From: an uncultured Bacilli bacterium
GTDB lineage: Bacteria > Bacillota_I > Bacilli_A > RF39 > UBA660
Length of the DNA: 37,259 nucleotides
Assembly: GCA_934162555.1 (NCBI GenBank)
Contig: CAKPJE010000001.1
Span: 1-37,259, forward strand
Direction: 5' to 3'
The notes under the pieces were generated by a model. The model worked only from the letters and a program-made list of their open reading frames with translations, ran no database searches and was not told the origin of the DNA. Position numbers and translations under genes: made by a program. Below, piece by piece: positions 2,461 to 26,960 of this stretch; position 1 is the stretch's first letter; every line of letters begins with the position of its first letter.

Positions 2461-4053
2461 TTAAATTTGTGTACCTTTTATAATATTACTGTTACTTGAT
2501 TTGGTTGCAATCATATTATCTACAATACTAGAAGTACTAGAAGTATAATTAACTGTAACTTTAGCTCCATCCACTGTAGAGCAACCACTAAACATACTTG
2601 TATAACTAGAAATACTTGCATTTTTTATTGTTATTTCAGTTAAAAGATTAGAACAGTTATAAAACATACCGGTCATATTAGTAGCGCTACTAGTATCAAA
2701 TATTCCTAAATTTAAGTTTTTTAATTTTGTACAACCATTAAAGGTAGAATACATATTAGTTACTTTAGATGTATCAAAACTACTTAAGTCTAAATTTACT
2801 AAAGATGAACAGTTTAGAAACATAAAACGCATATAGGTTAAACTCGAAGTATTGAATTTTTTTAAATTTAAATCTACTAAAGATGCACAACCAGAGAATG
2901 TCCCAAACATTAGTGTTACTTTCGATGTATTAAAGCTACTTAAGTCTAATTTTTTTAAAGATGTACAGTCTGCGAATAAGTGGGTCATATCTGTTATTTT
3001 AGATGTATTAAAATTAGTTATATCAAGACTTTCAATAGCATTTAAATTCATAAACATTTCTTTCATATTTTCTACGTTTAATGTATTAAAACTACTTAAA
3101 TTTAAATTGGTTAAAGATGTACAACCATAAAACATTTGAGCCATTGTTGTAACGTTTTGCGTACTAAAATTACTTAAATCTAAATTTGTTAAAGATGTAC
3201 AATTAGTAAACATATTTTCCATATTGTATACTTTAGTGGTATTAAAGTTATTATTAAAATCAATCGTTTTTAAATTAGTAAAATCTCTAAATATACCGTA
3301 ACAATTATCGGGAGCATATATTTCATAACTACTTGCTATATATAAATTATATAAAGTTTTGCCATTACTATCTTTTAATCCACTGTCCACTAAATAAGAG
3401 TATACTTTTTTAGTTCCATTTCCAGTTATATCGAAACATAAATTAGTTTCATCACATGTACTTGGTACATTACTTAAATCATTTACAAATTTAATACTTC
3501 TTATGTATGGTTTATAAGTATCACTCCAAAATTCAGTTCCACTATTTCCATTTTTCATATAGGCAGCATTAGTAGTTCTACTTTTAATTATAATTTTAGC
3601 ATTTATTTCTTTATTGATAAAATTGTTATCTTCATTATCACTTATTTTACCATCCCAATACCAATATATAGTAACTGTATCACTTTTTGTATCGGTTGAA
3701 TTAAAGTATTTAGTATAGGTAGAAAATGGACTTATGTTATCATCTTGAGATAAAAATTTAAATCCTTTAGGTAAATTGGTTCTTTCAATACTTATACTAT
3801 AAATTGCATCACTTTCTGTATTGTCTAAATTAACTGTTAGATTAAAGTTTCCTTTATCGTATGGTTTTAAACTATCACCTAAATTTATTTCTTTAGTACT
3901 AGTAGAACCACTGCTAACGTTAAATGTATAATTAGCAGATGTAGCAACTATACTTCCATCTACTGCATATCTATAATAAGCAACTGTGCCTGTTGTAAAA
4001 AAGAGTAATCCTAGTGTAAGACTTAAAACAATTAAAAACTTTCTTATTCTCAT
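2461..4053 (-). CDS. Secreted BspA/DUF285-type leucine-rich-repeat protein with SipW-type signal peptide and TasA/camelysin-like N-terminal module (paralog 1, subfamily A)
   Basis: 530-aa ORF. The N-terminus ...LLFFTTGTVAYYRY resembles TasA/CalY-class signal peptides. It is followed by a beta-rich module (LKPYDKGNFNLTV...TNLPKGFKF...TIYWYWDG), then 8 x 25-aa repeats of type LTNLDLSxFNTSxVTxMxxMFxxCxS. There is no LPXTG, SLH or other anchor. Confidence 0.85.
   Translation of the reverse strand: MRIRKFLIVLSLTLGLLFFTTGTVAYYRYAVDGSIVATSANYTFNVSSGSTSTKEINLGDSLKPYDKGNFNLTVNLDNTESDAIYSISIERTNLPKGFKFLSQDDNISPFSTYTKYFNSTDTKSDTVTIYWYWDGKISDNEDNNFINKEINAKIIIKSRTTNAAYMKNGNSGTEFWSDTYKPYIRSIKFVNDLSNVPSTCDETNLCFDITGNGTKKVYSYLVDSGLKDSNGKTLYNLYIASSYEIYAPDNCYGIFRDFTNLKTIDFNNNFNTTKVYNMENMFTNCTSLTNLDLSNFSTQNVTTMAQMFYGCTSLTNLNLSSFNTLNVENMKEMFMNLNAIESLDITNFNTSKITDMTHLFADCTSLKKLDLSSFNTSKVTLMFGTFSGCASLVDLNLKKFNTSSLTYMRFMFLNCSSLVNLDLSSFDTSKVTNMYSTFNGCTKLKNLNLGIFDTSSATNMTGMFYNCSNLLTEITIKNASISSYTSMFSGCSTVDGAKVTVNYTSSTSSIVDNMIATKSSNSNIIKGTQI
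2645..3264 (-). repeat. 75-bp-period coding repeat array (8 LRR units) inside paralog 1 (approximate bounds)
   Basis: Repeated ttaaa(a/g)ctacttaa(g/a)tctaaa... / acaaccat(a/t)aaacat blocks every 75 nt, translating to the 25-aa LRR unit. Confidence 0.7.
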
Positions 4054-4139
4054 ATCTATTCCTTTACTTTCATTATAATGATACCATAAATGGTCTTAAA
4101 AAACAATATAGTTTTATCAAAAAAGATAGTTAAACTACC

Positions 4140-5768
4140 TTATGATATTAAACTACCTTTTACAACATTACTATTAGATGATTTTGTTGCAATCATACTA
4201 TCCACTAAAGAACTTGTAGCTGATGTATAATTAACTGTTATTTTGACTCCTGAAGCAGTTGCAGCACCTTGAAACATATACATATAATAAGTAGTATTAG
4301 CACTCATTATATTGATTGTTGTTGTAAGTTTCGAACAAGAATAAAACATCCAACCCATATATGTTACATTTGATGTATTAAAACTACTCAAATCTAGCCT
4401 TGTTAAAGATGAACAGTTTCGAAACATACCATCCATACCTGTTACATTCGAGGTATTAAAACTACTTAAATCAAGGGTTGTCAAGGATGAACAATTAGTA
4501 AACATACCACCCATTTCTGTTACCTTTGAAGTGTTAAAATTACTTAAGTCTAAACTTGTTAAAGATGTACAACCAGCAAACGCACCACCCATTTCTGTTA
4601 CATTTGAAGTGTTAAAATTACTTAAGTCTAAACTTGTTAAAGATGTACAACCATAAAACATATTAACCACCTCTGTTACTTTTGATGTGTTAAAATTACT
4701 TAAATCTAAACTTGTTAATGATGAACATTCATAAAACATATAATTCATACTTGTTACTTTTGAGGTATTAAAAACATTGGAGTCCAAACTTGTTAAGGAT
4801 GAACACTTAAAAAACATGCTACTCATATCTATTATTTTTGAAGTATTAAAGCCACTTAAATCTAAACTTGTTAAGAATGAACAGCCAGCAAACATATTTT
4901 TCATATTAGTTACATTTGAAGTATTAAAGTTATCATTAAAATTAATTTGAATTAAATTTGAAAGATATTTGTTATTTTCATATTTAGAAAAATAAAATAT
5001 GCTACCACAATTAGCTGGCGCAATTATTTCAACTTCACTAGCAATATACAAATTATATAAAACCTTTGTATTATCTGTACTATCTTTTAAACCACTATCC
5101 ACTAAATAAGCATACACTTTCTTAGTTCCACTTTCAGTTACATCCCAACATAAATTAGCTTCATCACAAGTACTCGGTACATTACTTATATTTTTAACAA
5201 AACTAACAGTTCTTATATAAGTTCTATAAGTATCACTCCAAAATTCACTTTTAGCACTATACCCATTCTTCATATAGGCCCCATTCATTTGTTTACTATC
5301 TATAACAATATCAGCACTCAAACTCTTCCCAACAAAACTAGTATCATTCTCATCATCAACATTACCATCCCAATACCAATATACAGTTACTGTATCGCTC
5401 TTAGTATCAGTTGATTTAAAAGTTTTACTATAAGTAGAAAAAGGACTTATATTATCATCCTGAGCAAGAAATTTAAAACCCTTAGGTAAATTAGTTCTCT
5501 CAATCTTAACAGAAAAATATGCATCACTATCAGTATTATTTAAATTAACCGTTAAATTAAAACTCCCCTTATCAAAAGGTTTTAAATTAGAACCCAAATT
5601 TATCTCTTTGGTAGTAGTAGAACCACTACTAACATTAAAAGTATAATTACCTACACTAGCTTTTATTAATCCACTAACCCCATACCTATAATAAGCAACC
5701 GTACCAGTAGTTATAACAGAAACAAAAAATACAATCGCCGAAAATATTAATATTTTTTTCTTATTCAT
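4140..5768 (-). CDS. Secreted BspA/DUF285-type LRR protein with SipW-type signal and TasA-like N-module (paralog 2, subfamily A)
   Basis: 542 aa, MNKKKILIFSAIVFFVSVITTGTVAYYRY..., with 8 LRR units. The N-terminal ~240 codons are nearly identical at DNA level to paralog 3. It has its own small hairpin plus T-run and a TATAAT-like box in the 87-bp spacer upstream. Confidence 0.85.
   Translation of the reverse strand: MNKKKILIFSAIVFFVSVITTGTVAYYRYGVSGLIKASVGNYTFNVSSGSTTTKEINLGSNLKPFDKGSFNLTVNLNNTDSDAYFSVKIERTNLPKGFKFLAQDDNISPFSTYSKTFKSTDTKSDTVTVYWYWDGNVDDENDTSFVGKSLSADIVIDSKQMNGAYMKNGYSAKSEFWSDTYRTYIRTVSFVKNISNVPSTCDEANLCWDVTESGTKKVYAYLVDSGLKDSTDNTKVLYNLYIASEVEIIAPANCGSIFYFSKYENNKYLSNLIQINFNDNFNTSNVTNMKNMFAGCSFLTSLDLSGFNTSKIIDMSSMFFKCSSLTSLDSNVFNTSKVTSMNYMFYECSSLTSLDLSNFNTSKVTEVVNMFYGCTSLTSLDLSNFNTSNVTEMGGAFAGCTSLTSLDLSNFNTSKVTEMGGMFTNCSSLTTLDLSSFNTSNVTGMDGMFRNCSSLTRLDLSSFNTSNVTYMGWMFYSCSKLTTTINIMSANTTYYMYMFQGAATASGVKITVNYTSATSSLVDSMIATKSSNSNVVKGSLIS
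4329..4946 (-). repeat. 75-bp-period coding repeat array (8 LRR units) inside paralog 2 (approximate bounds)
   Basis: Units translate to LTSLDLSNFNTSKVTEMGGMFxxCSS. Neighbouring units are near-identical in places (e.g. 4540-4690). Confidence 0.7.
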
Positions 5769-5855
5769 ACGTATCTTCCTTTACTATCATAATAATGATA
5801 TCATAAATGACCTTAAAAAACAATACGGTTTAGCAAAAAAGATAGTTAAACTACC

Positions 5856-7538
5856 TTATGATATTAAACTACCTTTTACAACATTACTACTAGATGATTT
5901 GGTTGCAATCATACTATCAACTAAAGAACTTGTAGCTGATGTATAATTAACAGTTATTTTTGCTCCCGAATCAGTTGCAGCATTAAAAAACATATATGAA
6001 TAACTAGTTGTGCCAGTATTTATTATACCGATTGTTGCAGTAAGTTTAAAACATTTACAAAACATGGATTGCATATTTGTTGCTTGTGATGTGTTAAAGC
6101 TACTCAAATCCAAACTGGTTAATGACGAACAGCCATAAAACATATAACCCATGTCTGATACCTTTATTGTATTAAATGTACCTAATTTTAAAATTGCCAA
6201 GGAGGAACAATTCTGAAACATAGCATGTATATCAGTTACACTGGCAGTATTGAAACTACTTAAATCTAAACTTGTTAAAGACGAACATTTATTAAACATA
6301 TAAGCCATATTCGTCACATTTAATGTGTTAAAATTGTTCAATTCTAAATTTGTCAATGATGAACATTTTTGAAACATACCAGTCATATCTGTTACATTTA
6401 ATGTATTAAAACCATTTAAATCTAAACTGGTTAAAATATTGCATGTAACAAACATACCTTGCATATTTGTCACGTTTGATGTATTAAAACCACCTAAATC
6501 TAAACTTGTTAAAGATGAGCATTCAGCAAACATCATGTTCATATCAGTCACATTTAAAGTATTAAAATTACTTAAATCCAAGCTTATCAAAGATGAGCAA
6601 GTACAAAACATATATGCAGAATTTGTTACATTAGATGTATTGAAGTTACTTAAATCTAAACTTGTTAATGATAAGCATTCATAAAACATCCCTCTCATAT
6701 TCGTGGTATTAAATGTATAAAACATATTATTGAAATTAATTTTTATTAAATTAGTAAAATTTCGGAACATAAACTCACAAATAATTGGCGCAAATATTTC
6801 AACCTCACTAGCAATATATAAATTATATAAAGCCTTTGTATTATCTGTACTATCTTTTAAACCACTATCCACTAAATAAGCATACACTTTCTTAGTTTCA
6901 CTTTCAGTTACATCCCAGCACAAATTAGTTTCATCACAAGTACTCGGTACATTACTTATATTTTTAACAAAACTAACAGTTCTTATATAAGTTCTATAAG
7001 TATCACTCCAAAATTCACTTTTAGCACTATACCCATTCTTCATATAGGCCCCATTCATTTGTTTACTATCTATAACAATATCAGCACTCAAACTCTTCCC
7101 AACAAAACTAGTATCATTCTCATCATCAACATTACCATCCCAATACCAATATACAGTTACTGTATCGCTCTTAGTATCAGTTGATTTAAAAGTTTTACTA
7201 TAAGTAGAAAAAGGACTTATATTATCATCCTGAGCAAGAAATTTAAAACCCTTAGGTAAATTAGTTCTCTCAATCTTAACAGAAAAATATGCATCACTAT
7301 CAGTATTATTTAAATTAACCGTTAAATTAAAACTCCCCTTATCAAAAGGTTTTAAATTAGAACCCAAATTTATCTCTTTGGTAGTAGTAGAACCACTACT
7401 AACATTAAAAGTATAATTACCTACACTAGCTTTTATTAATCCACTAACCCCATACCTATAATAAGCAACCGTACCAGTAGTTATAACAGAAACAAAAAAT
7501 ACAATCGCCGAAAATATTAATATTTTTTTATTATTCAT
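5856..7538 (-). CDS. Secreted BspA/DUF285-type LRR protein with SipW-type signal and TasA-like N-module (paralog 3, subfamily A)
   Basis: 560 aa with 9 LRR units. The N-terminal and C-terminal ends match paralog 2, while the central repeats differ. Confidence 0.85.
   Translation of the reverse strand: MNNKKILIFSAIVFFVSVITTGTVAYYRYGVSGLIKASVGNYTFNVSSGSTTTKEINLGSNLKPFDKGSFNLTVNLNNTDSDAYFSVKIERTNLPKGFKFLAQDDNISPFSTYSKTFKSTDTKSDTVTVYWYWDGNVDDENDTSFVGKSLSADIVIDSKQMNGAYMKNGYSAKSEFWSDTYRTYIRTVSFVKNISNVPSTCDETNLCWDVTESETKKVYAYLVDSGLKDSTDNTKALYNLYIASEVEIFAPIICEFMFRNFTNLIKINFNNMFYTFNTTNMRGMFYECLSLTSLDLSNFNTSNVTNSAYMFCTCSSLISLDLSNFNTLNVTDMNMMFAECSSLTSLDLGGFNTSNVTNMQGMFVTCNILTSLDLNGFNTLNVTDMTGMFQKCSSLTNLELNNFNTLNVTNMAYMFNKCSSLTSLDLSSFNTASVTDIHAMFQNCSSLAILKLGTFNTIKVSDMGYMFYGCSSLTSLDLSSFNTSQATNMQSMFCKCFKLTATIGIINTGTTSYSYMFFNAATDSGAKITVNYTSATSSLVDSMIATKSSSSNVVKGSLIS
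6045..6740 (-). repeat. 75-bp-period coding repeat array (9 LRR units) inside paralog 3 (approximate bounds)
   Basis: Same 25-aa unit, but the variable positions differ from paralog 2. Confidence 0.7.
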
Positions 7539-10569: not shown

Positions 10570-10929
10570 ATGAATTATTTAAAAAAAATAAGTATTGCTT
10601 TAGGCATAAGTCTTGGTATAACTCTCATATTAACATTTCTAAACACCCTATTCAATTACATAGAACTATATAGTTATAATGTATACACAATCATAGAATT
10701 CATAATTGTATTAATCGCATCACTTGTGTCAGGATTCATAAACGGCAAAAAATCAAACAAAAAAGGATGGTTAGAAGGACTAAAACTAAGCTTTATAATT
10801 ATAGCTTTATTAATAATATTCAATTTAATATTTGGATTTGTATTTAACACAAAACTAATAATATTCTATTTAATCATTATAACCTCAAATATTATAGGAA
10901 GTATGTTTGGTATCCAAAAAAAAGACTAA
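10570..10929 (+). CDS. Small polytopic membrane protein (about 4 TM), function unknown
   Basis: 119 aa, AGGTGA RBS, strongly hydrophobic segments separated by a KKSNKKGW loop. Its stop overlaps the stop of convergent sigE. Confidence 0.6.
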   Translation: MNYLKKISIALGISLGITLILTFLNTLFNYIELYSYNVYTIIEFIIVLIASLVSGFINGKKSNKKGWLEGLKLSFIIIALLIIFNLIFGFVFNTKLIIFYLIIITSNIIGSMFGIQKKD

Positions 10930-10956
10930 ATTTTACTAATAACTTTTAGTCTTTTT
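10919..10956. terminator. Putative bidirectional hairpin covering the overlapping stop codons of the membrane gene and sigE
   Basis: aaaaagactaaa (10919-10930) pairs with tttagtcttttt (10945-10956): a 12-bp AT-rich stem with a 14-nt loop and T-runs on both strands. Confidence 0.45.
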
Positions 10957-11615
10957 ATTATCTTCTTTTCTATCCTTGAAATATATGACTGACTTATATT
11001 AAGTAGCTCAGCAACATCCTTTTGTGTCATCTCCTTATTACCATACAATCCATACCTTAAAACCATTATTTTCTTATCTCTACCCTTTAACTTAGAAATT
11101 TCCTCGTACAAAGCTTTTCTATCATTCTCATCCTCAATACCCTTTGTTACAATATCATCATCCGTACCAAGTATATCCTCTAAATGAAGTTCGTTTCCCT
11201 CGGAATCATAACTCAAACTATCCTCTAAACTAATTTCCCCTTTTCTTCTCTTATTCTTTCTCAAAAACATTAAAATCTCATTATCAATACACCTTGAAGC
11301 ATAAGTAGCAAGCTTAATATTTTTATCAAGCTTATATGTATTAACACCCTTTATCAAACCAATTGTACCAATACTTACTAAATCTTCTAAATCAACACCT
11401 GTGTTTTCATATTTTTTTGACAAAAATACCACTAATCTTAAGTTGTGCTCAATTAATTTACTCTTAGCATCATTATCCCCATCCATATTCAGTAAAACAA
11501 GTCTTTCTTCCTCATCTCTTTTTAAAGGCTCTGGCAATTTATCAGTGCTACCGATAAAATATATTCCTTCACTTTTAAAAACTTTTAGTATAATTCTTAT
11601 TATTTTTTTTAGCAT
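10926..11615 (-). CDS. sigE: Sporulation sigma factor E precursor (pro-sigma-E)
   Basis: 229 aa. ...IYFIGSTDKLPEPLKRDEEERLV..., NLRLVVFLSKKYENTGVDLEDLVSIGTIGLIKGVNTY, KLATYASRCIDNEILMFLR and ISQSYISRIEKKIIKRL are nearly collinear with B. subtilis SigE. It lies directly downstream of, and overlaps, spoIIGA. GGAGGG RBS. Confidence 0.9.
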   Translation of the reverse strand: MLKKIIRIILKVFKSEGIYFIGSTDKLPEPLKRDEEERLVLLNMDGDNDAKSKLIEHNLRLVVFLSKKYENTGVDLEDLVSIGTIGLIKGVNTYKLDKNIKLATYASRCIDNEILMFLRKNKRRKGEISLEDSLSYDSEGNELHLEDILGTDDDIVTKGIEDENDRKALYEEISKLKGRDKKIMVLRYGLYGNKEMTQKDVAELLNISQSYISRIEKKIIKRLKVISKI

Positions 11616-12373
11616 ATTCCCTCCAATTTATTATTTAATAAGCAATCTACACCATCTATATTAATCTTAAAACATGTTCCAACATACACATCATATGTTC
11701 TATTTTTGTATATTAATTTACCCTTAACACAATTTAAACTACCACTTCCAAGTGCGACTGAACAAGGAACAATGATATTTTTTTTTGAATTTATTTTTTT
11801 ATTTATCAAAATGATTGGTTTATAAAAATATGGATCAACTAAATTGTTCCCTGTATCCATAAAACCATTTAATTCATAAATCTTATTTTCTACTTCTAAT
11901 TTTACTCTATATATATTGTTATGTATTCTCTTAAACATTTTGGATTCTTTAATATATATATAAAGTATAATTGGTGATGAAATAAATAAAAATATATAAT
12001 TGATACTTAGTCCCTTAAAATAAAATACTAAACCTGTATTTTTATAAGAAAATGTAATACTCAAAAAATATAAAAATCCTCCTAATATAATACTAACTGT
12101 ATATAAAAATAACATATTTTTTAAGAAATATTTTATATTTTTATACCCAAACCCTATTAGTAGCATTAATATACTTATTAATATTTTTAATAAAAATAAT
12201 TGAAAACTTGTTATTTTAATAAACAAAAATAGAATACTTAAACTACCTACAAATGCTCCTAACATCAATTTATAAAATTTGGCATTTCTTTTTAAAATTA
12301 TTGATGTTGTTAAAAGAATTAGTAAATCAAAAGAAAAGTTAATAAATAAAACTACATCTATATATATCTTCAT
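11609..12373 (-). CDS. spoIIGA: Sigma-E processing aspartic peptidase SpoIIGA
   Basis: Five N-terminal TM segments and a C-terminal domain with GFMDTGNNLVDP (the DxGN aspartic protease motif of SpoIIGA). Paired with sigE. I place the start at the ATG (MKIYIDVVLF) behind GGTGA rather than at the track's upstream TTG (12385). Confidence 0.85.
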   Translation of the reverse strand: MKIYIDVVLFINFSFDLLILLTTSIILKRNAKFYKLMLGAFVGSLSILFLFIKITSFQLFLLKILISILMLLIGFGYKNIKYFLKNMLFLYTVSIILGGFLYFLSITFSYKNTGLVFYFKGLSINYIFLFISSPIILYIYIKESKMFKRIHNNIYRVKLEVENKIYELNGFMDTGNNLVDPYFYKPIILINKKINSKKNIIVPCSVALGSGSLNCVKGKLIYKNRTYDVYVGTCFKINIDGVDCLLNNKLEGIC

Positions 12374-12492
12374 TTTCATCACCAAAATGATTATATACTA
12401 TAAATAATAAAAAAAATGTCATTTTAAAAGAAAGCCGTAACCATACGAGCTTTCATGTACTTATGTACATTATATTATATTCTTTTACAATA

Positions 12493-16193: not shown

Positions 16194-16213
16194 AAACCTA
16201 TAAAAATAGGTTT
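16194..16213 (-). terminator. Terminator hairpin of LRR paralog 4 (overlaps its stop codon)
   Basis: Minus strand AAACCTAT-TTTT-ATAGGTTT followed by ATTTGTGTT. Confidence 0.55.
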
Positions 16214-18008
16214 ACATTGCTTTTAAAGTTATTTTAGTTTGATTAGCTGTTGATGCGGTTGCTTTCATAGCTTCAGCTATTGTTTGTGTATCTGTAGTAT
16301 AACCAAGTATAACATATGCAGCAGGATCTGTCAAAGCAGAAGTAAACATCTTGGAATAGTCAGTTCCAGTATTCATTATATTTATCTCTGTTTGGAGTTT
16401 TTCACAACTACGAAACATATCACTCATATCTGTAACCTTAGACGTATTAAAACTACTTAAGTCTAAACTTGTTAATGAAGAACAACCAGAAAACATACCA
16501 CTCATCTTTGTTACTTGTGATGTATTAAAATTACTTAAATCTAAGTTAGTCAAGAATGAACAGCCATAAAACATATTCCACATACTTGTTACATTCGAAG
16601 TATTAAAACTGCTTAAGTCCAAACTTGTTAATGATGAACAACCCAAAAACATTTGACCCATAGATGTTACTTTTGATGTATTAAAACTGCTTAAATTCAA
16701 ACTTGTTAATGATGAACAATTTTCAAACATACCACCCATCTTTGTTACATTCGATGTATTAAAACCGCTTAAATTTAAACTTGTTAATGATGAACTTTTA
16801 CAAAACATATAGCTCATGTCTATTACTTTTGATGTATTAAAATTACTTAAATCTAATTTTGCTAAGGATGAACAATCCATAAACATTTGAGACATTCTGG
16901 TTACTTTAGATGTATTAAAACTACTTAAGTCTAAACTTGTTAAGGATGAACAATTCACAAACATCTGTGAAAAATTAGTTACTTTTGATGTATTAAAATT
17001 ACTTAAATCTAAGTTAGTCAAGGATGAACAGCCATAAAACATATACCCCATATCTGTTACATTCAATGTATTAAAATTACTTAAATTTAATGTTATCAAT
17101 GATGAACAATTTTCAAACATACAATACATATCTGCTACATTTGAGGTATTAAAATTATTATTAAAATTAATTTGAGTTAAATTTTTAAAATTACTAAACA
17201 TATCATTACAATTAGATACCGCAAATATTGGTGCTTCACTTACCACATATAAGTTATATAATGTCTTTTCTACTGTTGTACTTGTACTACTATCCGTTTC
17301 AGATACTGTTAATCCACTATCTATTAGATAACCATATACCTTTTTCTTTTGACCTGCCCAATATGATATATCCCAACATAAATTTTCTTCTGTACAACTA
17401 CTAGGTAAATTACTCAAATCATTACCAAATGTTATTGTTCTTATATATGGTTTATATGTATTATTCCAAAATGCTTTTGAATACCTAGACCCATTCGTCA
17501 TTATTGCATATTCACTTATCTGAACCGCACTTACCCTAACATTTGCTTCTAAATTACTTACATTTATAAACTTACTATCCTCTATATCATCTATATATGG
17601 ATTCCAATACCAATATATAGTTAATGTTTCTGTTTGATTTGTTGTTTCTAAGAAACTATAGTACTTGTGTAATTCACTCTTATGATCTGATGTTGCATAA
17701 AACTTTAAATTAGTTGGTAAATTTGTCCTTTCTATCTCTAAAGTTGCATACATATCTACACTTGATCCACTAGCATCCATGGTAACAGTAAACTCTCCAC
17801 TATCTCCAGGATTTATTTTACCTAAATCTATTACCTTATTATTCCATACACTATTATCACTATCTCTTAATACAAATACGGCATTACCAGTACTACCTTT
17901 TATACTTCCATTTACAACTATTCTATAATAAGCAATTGATCCAACTAATAAAGCTATCAAACCCATTATAGATAAAATCACTAAAATTATTTTTTTACTA
18001 TTCTTCAT
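16212..18008 (-). CDS. Secreted BspA/DUF285-type LRR protein with SipW-type signal and TasA-like N-module (paralog 4, subfamily B)
   Basis: 598 aa. MKNSKKIILVILSIMGLIALLVGSIAYYRIVVNGS..., KINPGDSGEFTVTMDASGSSVDMY...TNLPTNLKFY...LTIYWYWNPY, then 10 LRR units. The C-terminal end ...ILGYTTDTQTIAEAMKATASTANQTKITLKAM is shared with paralog 5. Confidence 0.85.
   Translation of the reverse strand: MKNSKKIILVILSIMGLIALLVGSIAYYRIVVNGSIKGSTGNAVFVLRDSDNSVWNNKVIDLGKINPGDSGEFTVTMDASGSSVDMYATLEIERTNLPTNLKFYATSDHKSELHKYYSFLETTNQTETLTIYWYWNPYIDDIEDSKFINVSNLEANVRVSAVQISEYAIMTNGSRYSKAFWNNTYKPYIRTITFGNDLSNLPSSCTEENLCWDISYWAGQKKKVYGYLIDSGLTVSETDSSTSTTVEKTLYNLYVVSEAPIFAVSNCNDMFSNFKNLTQINFNNNFNTSNVADMYCMFENCSSLITLNLSNFNTLNVTDMGYMFYGCSSLTNLDLSNFNTSKVTNFSQMFVNCSSLTSLDLSSFNTSKVTRMSQMFMDCSSLAKLDLSNFNTSKVIDMSYMFCKSSSLTSLNLSGFNTSNVTKMGGMFENCSSLTSLNLSSFNTSKVTSMGQMFLGCSSLTSLDLSSFNTSNVTSMWNMFYGCSFLTNLDLSNFNTSQVTKMSGMFSGCSSLTSLDLSSFNTSKVTDMSDMFRSCEKLQTEINIMNTGTDYSKMFTSALTDPAAYVILGYTTDTQTIAEAMKATASTANQTKITLKAM
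16398..17171 (-). repeat. 75-bp-period coding repeat array (10 LRR units) inside paralog 4 (approximate bounds)
   Basis: Units translate to LTSLDLSSFNTSKVTxMxxMFxxCSS. Confidence 0.7.
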
Positions 18009-26207: not shown

Positions 26208-26400
26208 TTTTACCTCCAAAAAAAGGATAGTACAAGGAGTCTATAAGACGGTACCATCCTTTATTTATCTTAATTTTATAACGCATTTCACGGCTTAAAG
26301 CTCATCCAAAGTGATTCTTATTAGATTTAAACATTAATTTCCACCAATCATTAATTCTCTTTGCTTTAATTATCTAATAACGTCTTTTTCATCTGATTTA
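26208..26400 (-). promoter_or_regulatory. T-box riboswitch leader (Ile specifier) controlling ileS
   Basis: Minus strand shows AGAGA and GGTGGAA stem-I elements; a candidate specifier AUC followed by A (26315-26313, context AAGAAUCAC); and a T-box core AAAGGATGGTACCGTC (26247-26262). A terminator AGGATGGTAC...GTACTATCCT plus T7 (26218-26260) abuts the RBS. Confidence 0.85.
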
Positions 26401-26405
26401 ACAAT

Positions 26406-26434
26406 ATTATAGAAAGTTTTTGTTTTATTGTCAA
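26406..26434 (-). promoter_or_regulatory. Consensus sigma-A promoter for the ileS leader
   Basis: Minus strand reads TTGACA (26434-26429), exactly 17 nt, then TATAAT (26411-26406). Confidence 0.75.
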
Positions 26435-26441
26435 TAGCAAA

Positions 26442-26960
26442 TTATCTATTTGGTATTTGATTACCACTAGCAGTAATATTTAATATAATACCTTGGTTTA
26501 TAAAATTTATATCATCAGTACTTTCACCAAAATAAGGCCATACCCAATGTATTGTATAAGATTTTGTCATACTGGTTGCATCACAATTTAAAATACCACT
26601 CAAAGTATAATTTTTTAAATCAACATTTGTATCATCTAAATAAAATTCCATATTAGTAGGAACATTTGTTCCTGTAAAAACAACATTATAACCAACATCA
26701 ACATCACTACCAGTTGCAACAACATCAAAAGTAAAATTACCTTTATCACCAGGATTAATTTTACCAGCAACTGCTTGATCTGTTACTGTGTCATTTAAAT
26801 CAATACTAGTCAAAGTAGAACCTTTATATTTAATATCAAAAGCAAATTTTCCTGCATTAAATATAACCATACCTTCTATATCTTTACTATAATAAGCATA
26901 TGTACCAATATAGATAAATACTAAACCCAATAAAAAGAATAAACTTGATATTTTTTTCAT
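26442..26960 (-). CDS. Stand-alone TasA/camelysin-like secreted protein with SipW-type signal peptide
   Basis: 172 aa. MKKISSLFFLLGLVFIYIGTYAYYSKD (G-T-x-A-Y-Y, as in the TasA/CalY class). KINPGDKGNFTFDVVATGSDVDVGY...TNVPTNMEFY...TIHWVWPY aligns block for block with the first ~165 aa of the five LRR paralogs. Confidence 0.8.
   Translation of the reverse strand: MKKISSLFFLLGLVFIYIGTYAYYSKDIEGMVIFNAGKFAFDIKYKGSTLTSIDLNDTVTDQAVAGKINPGDKGNFTFDVVATGSDVDVGYNVVFTGTNVPTNMEFYLDDTNVDLKNYTLSGILNCDATSMTKSYTIHWVWPYFGESTDDINFINQGIILNITASGNQIPNR

Follow-up and report, generated by a model that had tools for sequence, protein, structure and literature searches.

How large leucine-rich repeat (LRR) proteins without a known anchor could be retained on a bacterial cell is the question raised by contig CAKPJE010000001.1 (assembly GCA_934162555.1), which comes from an uncultured lineage of human-gut Bacilli (RF39, UBA660) of very low guanine-plus-cytosine (GC) content, found in Hadza and other metagenomes. 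The window analysed here, the whole stretch of 37,259 nucleotides (nt), encodes five such proteins and a short protein of 172 amino acids (aa). An earlier interpretation of the same DNA, made without database searches (the sequence-only reading), had put forward the short protein as the possible major subunit of a TasA-like fibre and the LRR proteins as possible interchangeable adhesin-bearing subunits of that fibre. We found that the six proteins share a homologous N-terminal module, that this module represents a large family without a name, and that its homologues repeatedly lie beside genes for SipW-type signal peptidases; a TasA-like, SipW-associated system is plausible. The coordinates of the features are collected in Table 1.

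The open reading frame (ORF) of the short protein is preceded by an AGGTGG ribosome-binding site, 7 nt 5' of the ATG, and the whole length of its product can be aligned to residues 1-165 of all five large paralogs (the N-modules). In BLASTP searches the short protein matched the 598-aa paralog with an expect value (E) of 3e-19 (32% identity over 171 residues) and the 530-aa paralog with E 3e-15 (29% identity over 153 residues). The multiple alignment of the six modules has 25 invariant columns, including G-x-x-A-Y-Y, P-x-D-x-G-x-F, T-N-x-P and W-x-W, and all the blocks quoted in the sequence-only reading fall among them; the core motifs of the short protein are I-N-P-G-D-x-G-x-F, T-N-x-P-x-N-x-x-F-Y, W-x-W-x-Y and G-x-Q. 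Moreover, a profile built from sequences outside the window matched exactly six of its ORFs, the short one and the five paralogs, and no other. As judged from these alignments, the homology is far beyond chance, and the 172-aa protein can be described, as had been claimed, as a stand-alone version of the module carried by the five LRR proteins.

Neither the short protein nor the N-modules matched any Pfam or NCBIfam family above threshold, and none was matched at E<=1. A census with HMMER, in which the profile of the six modules was run against 1.84 billion cluster representatives (clusters at 50% identity), returned 1081 representatives at E<=1e-3, of which 288 remained at E<=1e-10. With no Pfam or NCBIfam model of its own, the module represents a large, uncurated and unnamed family; a member from a cultured organism, WP_021637876.1 (Clostridium sp. 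KLE 1755 / Eisenbergiella), is annotated as "hypothetical protein". About half of the best 150 members stand alone with 150-260 aa, and the remainder are fused at their C-terminus to DUF285 (15 members), Flg_new (7), Big_2, CBM_4_9, LamG or other modules. The family consensus runs, in order, signal, G-T-x-A-x-Y, A-x-W-x-F-x-V-N, I-A-P-G-T-x-G-x-F, D-x-T-G-S, N-x-P-x-N-L-K-F-Y, T-I-Y-W-x-W-x-Y, D-x-x-D and I-x-V-x-G-x-Q. A word-indexed homologue search returned chiefly fragments from close relatives, and a narrower family scan of genome contigs matched only relatives among metagenome-assembled genomes (MAGs), all of them from other species. Four family-like genes of 195, 252, 170 and 637 aa also occur in a row on a sheep rumen contig labelled Candidatus Saccharibacteria (L022, 8120-13796), the 637-aa gene with Flg_new-type repeats; the row follows an LPXTG protein, and no peptidase was found within 10 kb of it.

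The strongest evidence came from the neighbours of these genes. A metagenome scan by family pattern returned 80 loci, and in 33 of them a SipW-like ORF lay within 3 kb of the family gene, mostly less than 100 bp away. The order that recurs at these loci begins with a SipW of about 200 aa, which is followed by the major subunit (about 197 aa), a first paralog (about 250 aa), another SipW (about 150-165 aa) and a further paralog (about 165 aa). The loci range from 25 to 57% in GC content, and the major genes beside the peptidases fall into 7 clusters at 50% identity. The cassette peptidases scored 70-99 bits against TIGR02228, the family of archaeal-type signal peptidases I to which SipW belongs (cutoff 51.85), with the Bacillus SipW model as their best match, and hhalign showed homology to the module family for the smaller paralogs of the cassettes too (probability 99.4%). 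A profile made only from 27 SipW-adjacent genes, with no sequence of the window in it, matched the short protein with E 7e-28 and the five N-modules with E 2e-17 to 1.6e-12, and nothing else in the window. One member 34% identical to the short protein (P0201) is itself located in such a cassette (L023), which reads: a 202-aa peptidase with the motifs SGSMEP and GDANN, a 275-aa paralog, a second peptidase of 160 aa, a paralog of 166-177 aa, P0201 and a 680-aa DUF285/Flg_new protein. This adjacency supports the proposal of the sequence-only reading that the module belongs to the class of SipW-processed proteins.

Two features of the cassettes can be added. The five-gene arrangement, with two different SipW-type peptidases (about 200 and 150-165 aa) interleaved with three paralogs, recurs in L031-L110 (for example L044, 9154-12225, and L106, 9200-14299), and the N-terminus of its middle paralog, whose length is about 250-550 aa, is of a different kind (P-T-G-N-V-D-V-F-D-I-D). 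The 680-aa protein directly after the cassette in L023 (10731-12773), which carries a further C-terminal domain, has the family signal and a short strand (TFSKYTKTLSKSLMLNI) and lacks the sandwich; it may be a tip or cap subunit that contributes a strand only, which recalls the role proposed for TapA.

The signal itself follows the same pattern. Among 93 relatives, position -3 of the cleavage site is T, S or A in 82, position -1 is A or S in 91 and position +2 is Y or F in 91. In hhalign, the G-T-Y-A-Y-Y of the short protein was placed on the G-T-W-A-A-F of TasA, whose mature N-terminus is A28 in the 8aur chain, and on the G-T-Y-A-Y-F of CalY/TasA-family proteins of the Bacillus cereus group. 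Because the motif aligns with the TasA/CalY cleavage site, the short protein is predicted to be cut after A22, leaving a mature protein of about 150 aa. The hhalign probability for the signal was 22% against the single TasA sequence and 87% against a five-sequence TasA/CalY profile (TasA plus four plasmid-borne Bacillus TasA-family genes), which is shallow, with an effective number of sequences (Neff) of about 2. Below threshold, members gave a few database matches, every one of them to a SipW-substrate family (PF12389, TIGR04087, TIGR04088, TIGR04089 or TIGR04090). The claim of a SipW-type signal has support from a conserved motif, T-x-A followed by x-Y/F, that aligns to the TasA/CalY site; the NCBIfam models TIGR04087 to TIGR04090 gave it no match above their cutoffs.

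AlphaFold2, run with a 93-sequence alignment, produced a confident model of the short protein (mean predicted local distance difference test, pLDDT, 89.7; predicted template modelling score, pTM, 0.74), in which residues 2-20 form a helix, residues 21-41 a coil (pLDDT 65-77) and residues 42-169 a sandwich of about ten strands, in agreement with the beta-sandwich that had been anticipated. In the model of the 598-aa paralog (pLDDT 88), the LRR solenoid exceeded 90 and the N-terminal sandwich reached 66-80. Residues 23-41, which would follow the predicted cut and fall in the coil, are conserved at a mean of 1.82 bits per column in the 93 relatives, compared with 1.70 for the folded core, and Y24, W/F39 and F41 are among the 14 most conserved columns; in the 598-aa paralog the matching stretch (residues 23-40) was modelled with pLDDT <50. 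From the models we infer a conserved segment that the monomer fold leaves unused, as a donor strand would be. Residues 28-38 of TasA and residues 28-38 of BsaA are segments of this sort (PMC9674648, PMC11580942).

The remainder of each large paralog (full ORFs, all on the minus strand: 2461..4053, 4140..5768, 5856..7538, 16212..18008 and 35288..37099) consists of DUF285/PARCEL arrays. These matched PF03382 with E 1e-50 to 1e-90 (168-298 bits, cutoff 25) and TIGR02167 with E 1e-57 to 1e-103 (190-338 bits, cutoff 30), scores that leave the earlier assignment of DUF285-type LRR arrays in no doubt; neither repeat was found in the short protein. A regular-expression and tail check found no LPXTG-like motif and no C-terminal hydrophobic/charged tail in any of the six proteins, and a sequence check found no lipobox cysteine in the large ones; the sequence-only reading had likewise seen no LPXTG or lipobox anchor in the large paralogs. 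In a close relative (L111, 3-2744), the neighbours of a truncated N-module fragment (P0172) are a sortase gene and the gene for a repeat protein whose sorting signal is of the PPDTG type; therefore, the lineage has sortase anchoring, which the LRR paralogs do not use.

The paralogs are mosaics. The N-modules are 99% identical between the genes starting at 4140 and 5856 and 91% identical between those starting at 16212 and 35288, with only 71% identity between the LRR parts of either pair; identity across the two paralog groups is 35-38% in the N-modules and 54-60% in the LRR parts. This comparison suggests gene conversion or domain shuffling. Strains differ in how many genes make up the tandem array (2461-7538), from one to three: there are three in the window and in L028, two and a 338-aa remnant in L029, and one and a 303-aa remnant in L030. 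Relatives have at least 8 paralog loci per MAG. The pattern is consistent with binding heads that change rapidly and are attached to a conserved module for assembly or display. Just outside the right end of the window (L027) there is a sixth DUF285 paralog of 611 aa.

We would give an even chance to a reading in which these proteins are secreted, cut at T-x-A by a SipW-type or possibly a generic peptidase and polymerised by donor-strand exchange, the LRR paralogs being incorporated into the polymer or capping it. By analogy with TasA, BsaA and the archaeal AbpA/AbpX, the signal would be removed after the conserved T-x-A, and cleavage would expose the conserved N-terminal stretch of about 20 residues, which would then serve as the donor strand in the sandwich of the neighbouring subunit and give rise to a non-covalent surface fibre. 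TasA is known to polymerise via its N-terminal donor strand (PMC9674648). The LRR paralogs, whose N-terminus has this signal, extension and sandwich too, could therefore be built into such a fibre, or cap it, and display variable LRR binding surfaces there, with the stand-alone short protein as a plain spacer subunit. SipW-type cleavage in this organism, donor-strand polymerisation and hetero-assembly with the LRR proteins are the steps that we infer here by analogy. More tentatively, and on balance we think it unlikely, the whole could be a modular Gram-positive fibre, in which a hitherto unrecognised clade related to the TasA superfamily would combine a plain subunit with interchangeable LRR, Flg_new, Big_2 or CBM heads by donor-strand exchange after SipW-type processing, and changes in LRR copy number and mosaic recombination would reshuffle the adhesive and antigenic surface of the gut lineage.

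Several results weigh against the donor-strand reading, and the first of them concern kinship with TasA. With the signals removed, the hhalign comparison of the mature domain with the TasA/CalY profile dropped from 87% to 0.25% (E 0.24), the level of the reversed control; homology of the mature domain to TasA/CalY is not claimed because the 87% had come from the signal peptide alone. Sequence and profile searches of the PDB (with the single protein, a 7-sequence and a 93-sequence profile) returned noise and retrieved neither 5of1 nor 8aur. Foldseek against the PDB gave no match at E<=1e-3, and its matches had template modelling (TM) scores of 0.33-0.45 and included non-polymerising immunoglobulin-like (Ig-like) domains. 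The best were FimG (1.3e-3), the TasA fibre 8aur_A (4.2e-3, TM 0.45/0.35), the PapG pilin domain, the Pyrobaculum bundling pilus AbpA, 7ueg_A (5.5e-3), CS17 and CfaB, with integrin, BcsB and CBM domains scoring alike; the enrichment of donor-strand pilins among the top matches is suggestive and not specific. Foldseek with the full-length model was uninformative. Neither the short protein nor the N-modules matched the Pfam model for TasA/camelysin, PF12389, at E<=1, and 149 relatives gave two sub-threshold matches, the better with E 0.0037 and 17.6 bits against a cutoff of 22.5.

Because Pfam and the mature-domain profile gave no support and the Foldseek matches are weak and generic, the module is not a demonstrable member of PF12389, and the assignment to the TasA/camelysin family made in the sequence-only reading is not supported in that form. 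From its sequence the module behaves as a separate family with a SipW-type signal and a genomic logic of the TasA superfamily. The parallels that had been drawn between its P-G-D beta-sandwich and TasA are visible in a forced alignment (P-G-D early, F/V-x-A/G-x-Q at the end), where they are without statistical support.

The genomic setting adds to these points. No signal peptidase gene was found in the window, which agrees with what had been said of sipW there, and sipW was not found in the 10 kb past both window ends or at five other paralog loci. In the 467 kb (redundant) of DNA accessible from this organism and its close relatives, a SipW profile gave no match even at E<=10, a search that covers only part of the genome. 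In L023 the cassette occupies a site next to ftsQ; in a close relative, only a 134-aa ORF and a DUF285 gene are present there. The short gene sits 8 nt past the stop of a Na/Ca exchanger gene in a housekeeping run (sepF, divIVA, the exchanger, the short gene, ileS), not in a fibre operon, and its T-x-A site fits cleavage by an ordinary type I signal peptidase (SPase I) too. The lack of sipW in the window is not disqualifying, since the plasmid-borne Bacillus TasA-family genes also have no adjacent sipW.

These points bear on an alternative that we take seriously although we doubt it, namely that the N-module is a passive stalk or spacer, its helix either left uncleaved as a membrane tether or cut by an ordinary SPase I with release of the protein, and that the short protein is a monomeric secreted or membrane-tethered paralog which forms no fibre. 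An N-terminal anchor alone would account for surface retention without LPXTG, and AlphaFold2 drew one long helix over residues 4-30 of an LRR paralog; the failure to find sipW in the 467 kb, the dispersal of the paralogs among housekeeping genes without a cassette and the likeness of the fold to many non-polymerising Ig-like domains all agree with it. However, the rule of small residues at -3 and -1 is kept in about 90% of the 93 relatives, which indicates cleavage; dedicated signal peptidase genes beside homologues at 33 of the 80 loci are hard to square with an uncleaved anchor; and the 20 residues past the cut are as conserved as the core and lie outside the monomer fold.

It is improbable, in our judgement, that a fibre system which is SipW-processed elsewhere has lost its cassette here, with the N-module persisting as an export or display domain on LRR adhesins and the short ORF as a relaxed, possibly decaying leftover. 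Such a loss would be in keeping with the cassette not being seen in this lineage and with the truncated N-module fragments that relatives carry (P0172, and a remnant each in L029 and L030), and the ratio of nonsynonymous to synonymous substitution rates (dN/dS) of the short gene, 0.48, is high next to the 0.04-0.08 of neighbouring genes. Nevertheless, the ratio does not reach 1, and surface proteins commonly show raised values; the syntenic ortholog is intact (88% aa identity), the ORF has the same length and synteny in two sub-lineages and is present on at least 30 contigs, and the protein ends at the natural C-terminal G-x-Q motif of the family. The short gene is constrained yet fast-evolving, as surface proteins often are, and with its ortholog intact and syntenic a pseudogene deserves little weight. 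It is hardly conceivable that the module serves as a pilin, whether type IV-like or assembled by sortase, although an N_methyl pilin gene 1.5 kb past the window end and sortase genes in relatives might bring this to mind: the proteins have no G-then-F/M-x-x-x-E prepilin motif, no LPXTG-like signal, no C-terminal membrane tail and, past the cut, an all-beta sandwich instead of the pilin alpha-1 helix; the sequences rule out these readings, and a lipoprotein reading by the missing lipobox.

Turning to the known systems that the donor-strand reading calls upon, the closest is TasA/CalY (PF12389; tapA-sipW-tasA in Bacillus). Both have the cleavage motif G-T-x-A followed by x-F/Y; both are small secreted beta-sandwiches (about 150-230 aa) with P-G-D/T early and F/V-x-A/G-x-Q at the end; and both have homologues adjoining a SipW-type peptidase and a conserved mature N-terminal stretch outside the monomer core. 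Besides the missing PF12389 match, the null mature-domain comparison and the TM of only 0.45/0.35 to 8aur, the module differs by its motifs W-x-W-x-Y and N-x-P-x-N-L-K-F-Y and by frequent large C-terminal fusions of adhesin type, and no tapA homologue was recognised. BsaA/BsaB of Clostridium perfringens (TIGR04090; sipW-bsaA-bsaB-bsaC; PMC11580942) likewise have a SipW-dependent signal, several paralogs per operon, a predicted N-terminal donor-strand exchange and no LPXTG despite nearby sortase genes; the sharing of operons by BsaA/TasA paralogs and signal peptidases has been read as suggesting heteropolymers (PMC11580942). The match of the module to them is, however, sub-threshold and confined to the signal (P0001, residues 3-44, E 0.0014), and BsaA proteins are not LRR fusions.

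Archaeal filaments of the TasA superfamily (AbpA, 7ueg; AbpX; Tafi) are encoded by loci with a signal peptidase I, major and minor subunits and a larger tip or adhesin protein with a donor region, to which the cassettes of L023, L031 and L106 are similar, and the module has a weak fold match to 7ueg; tip and minor components have been predicted in AbpX loci (10.64898/2026.01.04.697558). In contrast, the module comes from bacterial low-GC gut Firmicutes with no sequence link detected, and the adhesin-bearing proteins of the window are many, dispersed and each provided with a complete sandwich. Typical PARCEL arrays make up the C-terminal two thirds of each of the five paralogs, as in the DUF285/PARCEL (BspA-like) LRR proteins of Mollicutes, Listeria and lactococci, but the known members of that group are lipoproteins or are anchored by LPXTG or other means, whereas here the SipW-family N-module replaces the anchor. 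Chaperone-usher pilins (FimG, FimA, the PapG pilin domain, CfaB) were the best Foldseek matches and have an Ig-like sandwich completed by a donor strand; they are Gram-negative and need a periplasmic chaperone and an outer-membrane usher, for which there are no genes here, and the likeness does not go beyond the fold (TM 0.33-0.39).

The kind of system is already known, since a TasA superfamily, defined by structure and assembly (PMC9245690, 10.64898/2026.01.04.697558), dedicated peptidases, multi-paralog operons and predicted tip or minor subunits are in the literature (PMC9245690, PMC9674648, PMC11580942, 10.64898/2026.01.04.697558). What is new is a family that has neither model nor name, the frequency with which it is fused to adhesin modules, notably the N-module to PARCEL-LRR arrays, and its expansion in a gut lineage. 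A search of the accessible literature found no paper linking SipW or TasA to DUF285 or LRR proteins, in accordance with the earlier remark that this fusion architecture is not known to have been characterised. Fibres of the TasA donor-strand type have been a cross-domain theme of biofilm research since 2022, and the known members are plain matrix subunits with an occasional accessory protein. If the donor-strand model is true, it would explain how the abundant BspA/PARCEL-type LRR proteins of gut Firmicutes without a known anchor are retained on the cell; it would give monoderms adhesin-bearing fibre subunits that need neither sortase nor chaperone-usher, and a family model with which to annotate thousands of hypothetical proteins. 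Should it fail, the definition of the new family would still be useful, with the N-module as an export or display domain.

Table 1. Features of the short protein and of the five LRR paralogs in the window.
Feature	Position	Strand	Evidence
Stand-alone 172-aa member of the SipW-associated beta-sandwich family	26442..26960	-	ORF with ribosome-binding site; SipW-adjacent profile E 7e-28; AlphaFold2 pLDDT 89.7
Signal peptide, residues 1-22, ending G-T-Y-A, predicted cut after A22	26895..26960	-	Helix 2-20 in model; motif in 93 relatives; TasA/CalY alignment
N-terminal extension of mature protein, residues 23-41 (YYSKDIEGMVIFNAGKFAF), candidate donor strand	26838..26894	-	Coil in AlphaFold2 model; conservation
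Beta-sandwich core, residues 42-169	26454..26837	-	AlphaFold2 strands, mostly pLDDT >90; family consensus
N-module (1-165), 598-aa paralog	17514..18008	-	BLASTP E 3e-19; SipW-adjacent profile E 2e-17; AlphaFold2 sandwich 46-164
Cap domain and DUF285/PARCEL LRR array, 598-aa paralog	16212..17513	-	PF03382 E 3.6e-90; TIGR02167 E 1.3e-103; AlphaFold2 pLDDT >90
N-module, 603-aa paralog	36605..37099	-	Alignment; SipW-adjacent profile E 1.1e-16
Cap domain and DUF285 LRR array, 603-aa paralog	35288..36604	-	PF03382 E 4.4e-82
N-module, 530-aa paralog	3559..4053	-	BLASTP E 3e-15; SipW-adjacent profile E 1e-12
Cap domain and DUF285 LRR array, 530-aa paralog	2461..3558	-	PF03382 E 1.7e-62
N-module, 542-aa paralog	5274..5768	-	Alignment; SipW-adjacent profile E 1.1e-12
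Cap domain and DUF285 LRR array, 542-aa paralog	4140..5273	-	PF03382 E 3e-58
N-module, 560-aa paralog	7044..7538	-	Alignment; SipW-adjacent profile E 1.6e-12
Cap domain and DUF285 LRR array, 560-aa paralog	5856..7043	-	PF03382 E 8.3e-50

Other features were observed in the surroundings. Directly past the stop codon of the short gene lies a perfect TTGACA-17-TATAAT promoter (26406-26434, minus strand), before a T-box leader of ileS (26232-26401, minus strand), which scored 59.2 bits, below the Rfam gathering threshold of 93, so that a default scan misses it, and had E 1.2e-12 in a local search. Because spoIIGA and sigE are adjacent (10926-12385) and YlbD/YlbE coat genes lie nearby in relatives, the lineage is, by its gene content, a spore-former. 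At 29788-32206 (minus strand) a 690-aa C39-peptidase ABC exporter gene is followed downstream by an overlapping 127-aa ORF and, in relatives, by a 48-aa ORF; the region may be a bacteriocin or peptide export unit. The N_methyl (type IV pilin-like) gene past the right end of the window encodes 123 aa (L027, 5586-5957, about 1.5 kb away). Finally, a 575-aa ORF (32900-34627, plus strand), for which Pfam gave no match, contains several hydrophobic segments as well as a proline-rich stretch and is conserved in all related contigs.

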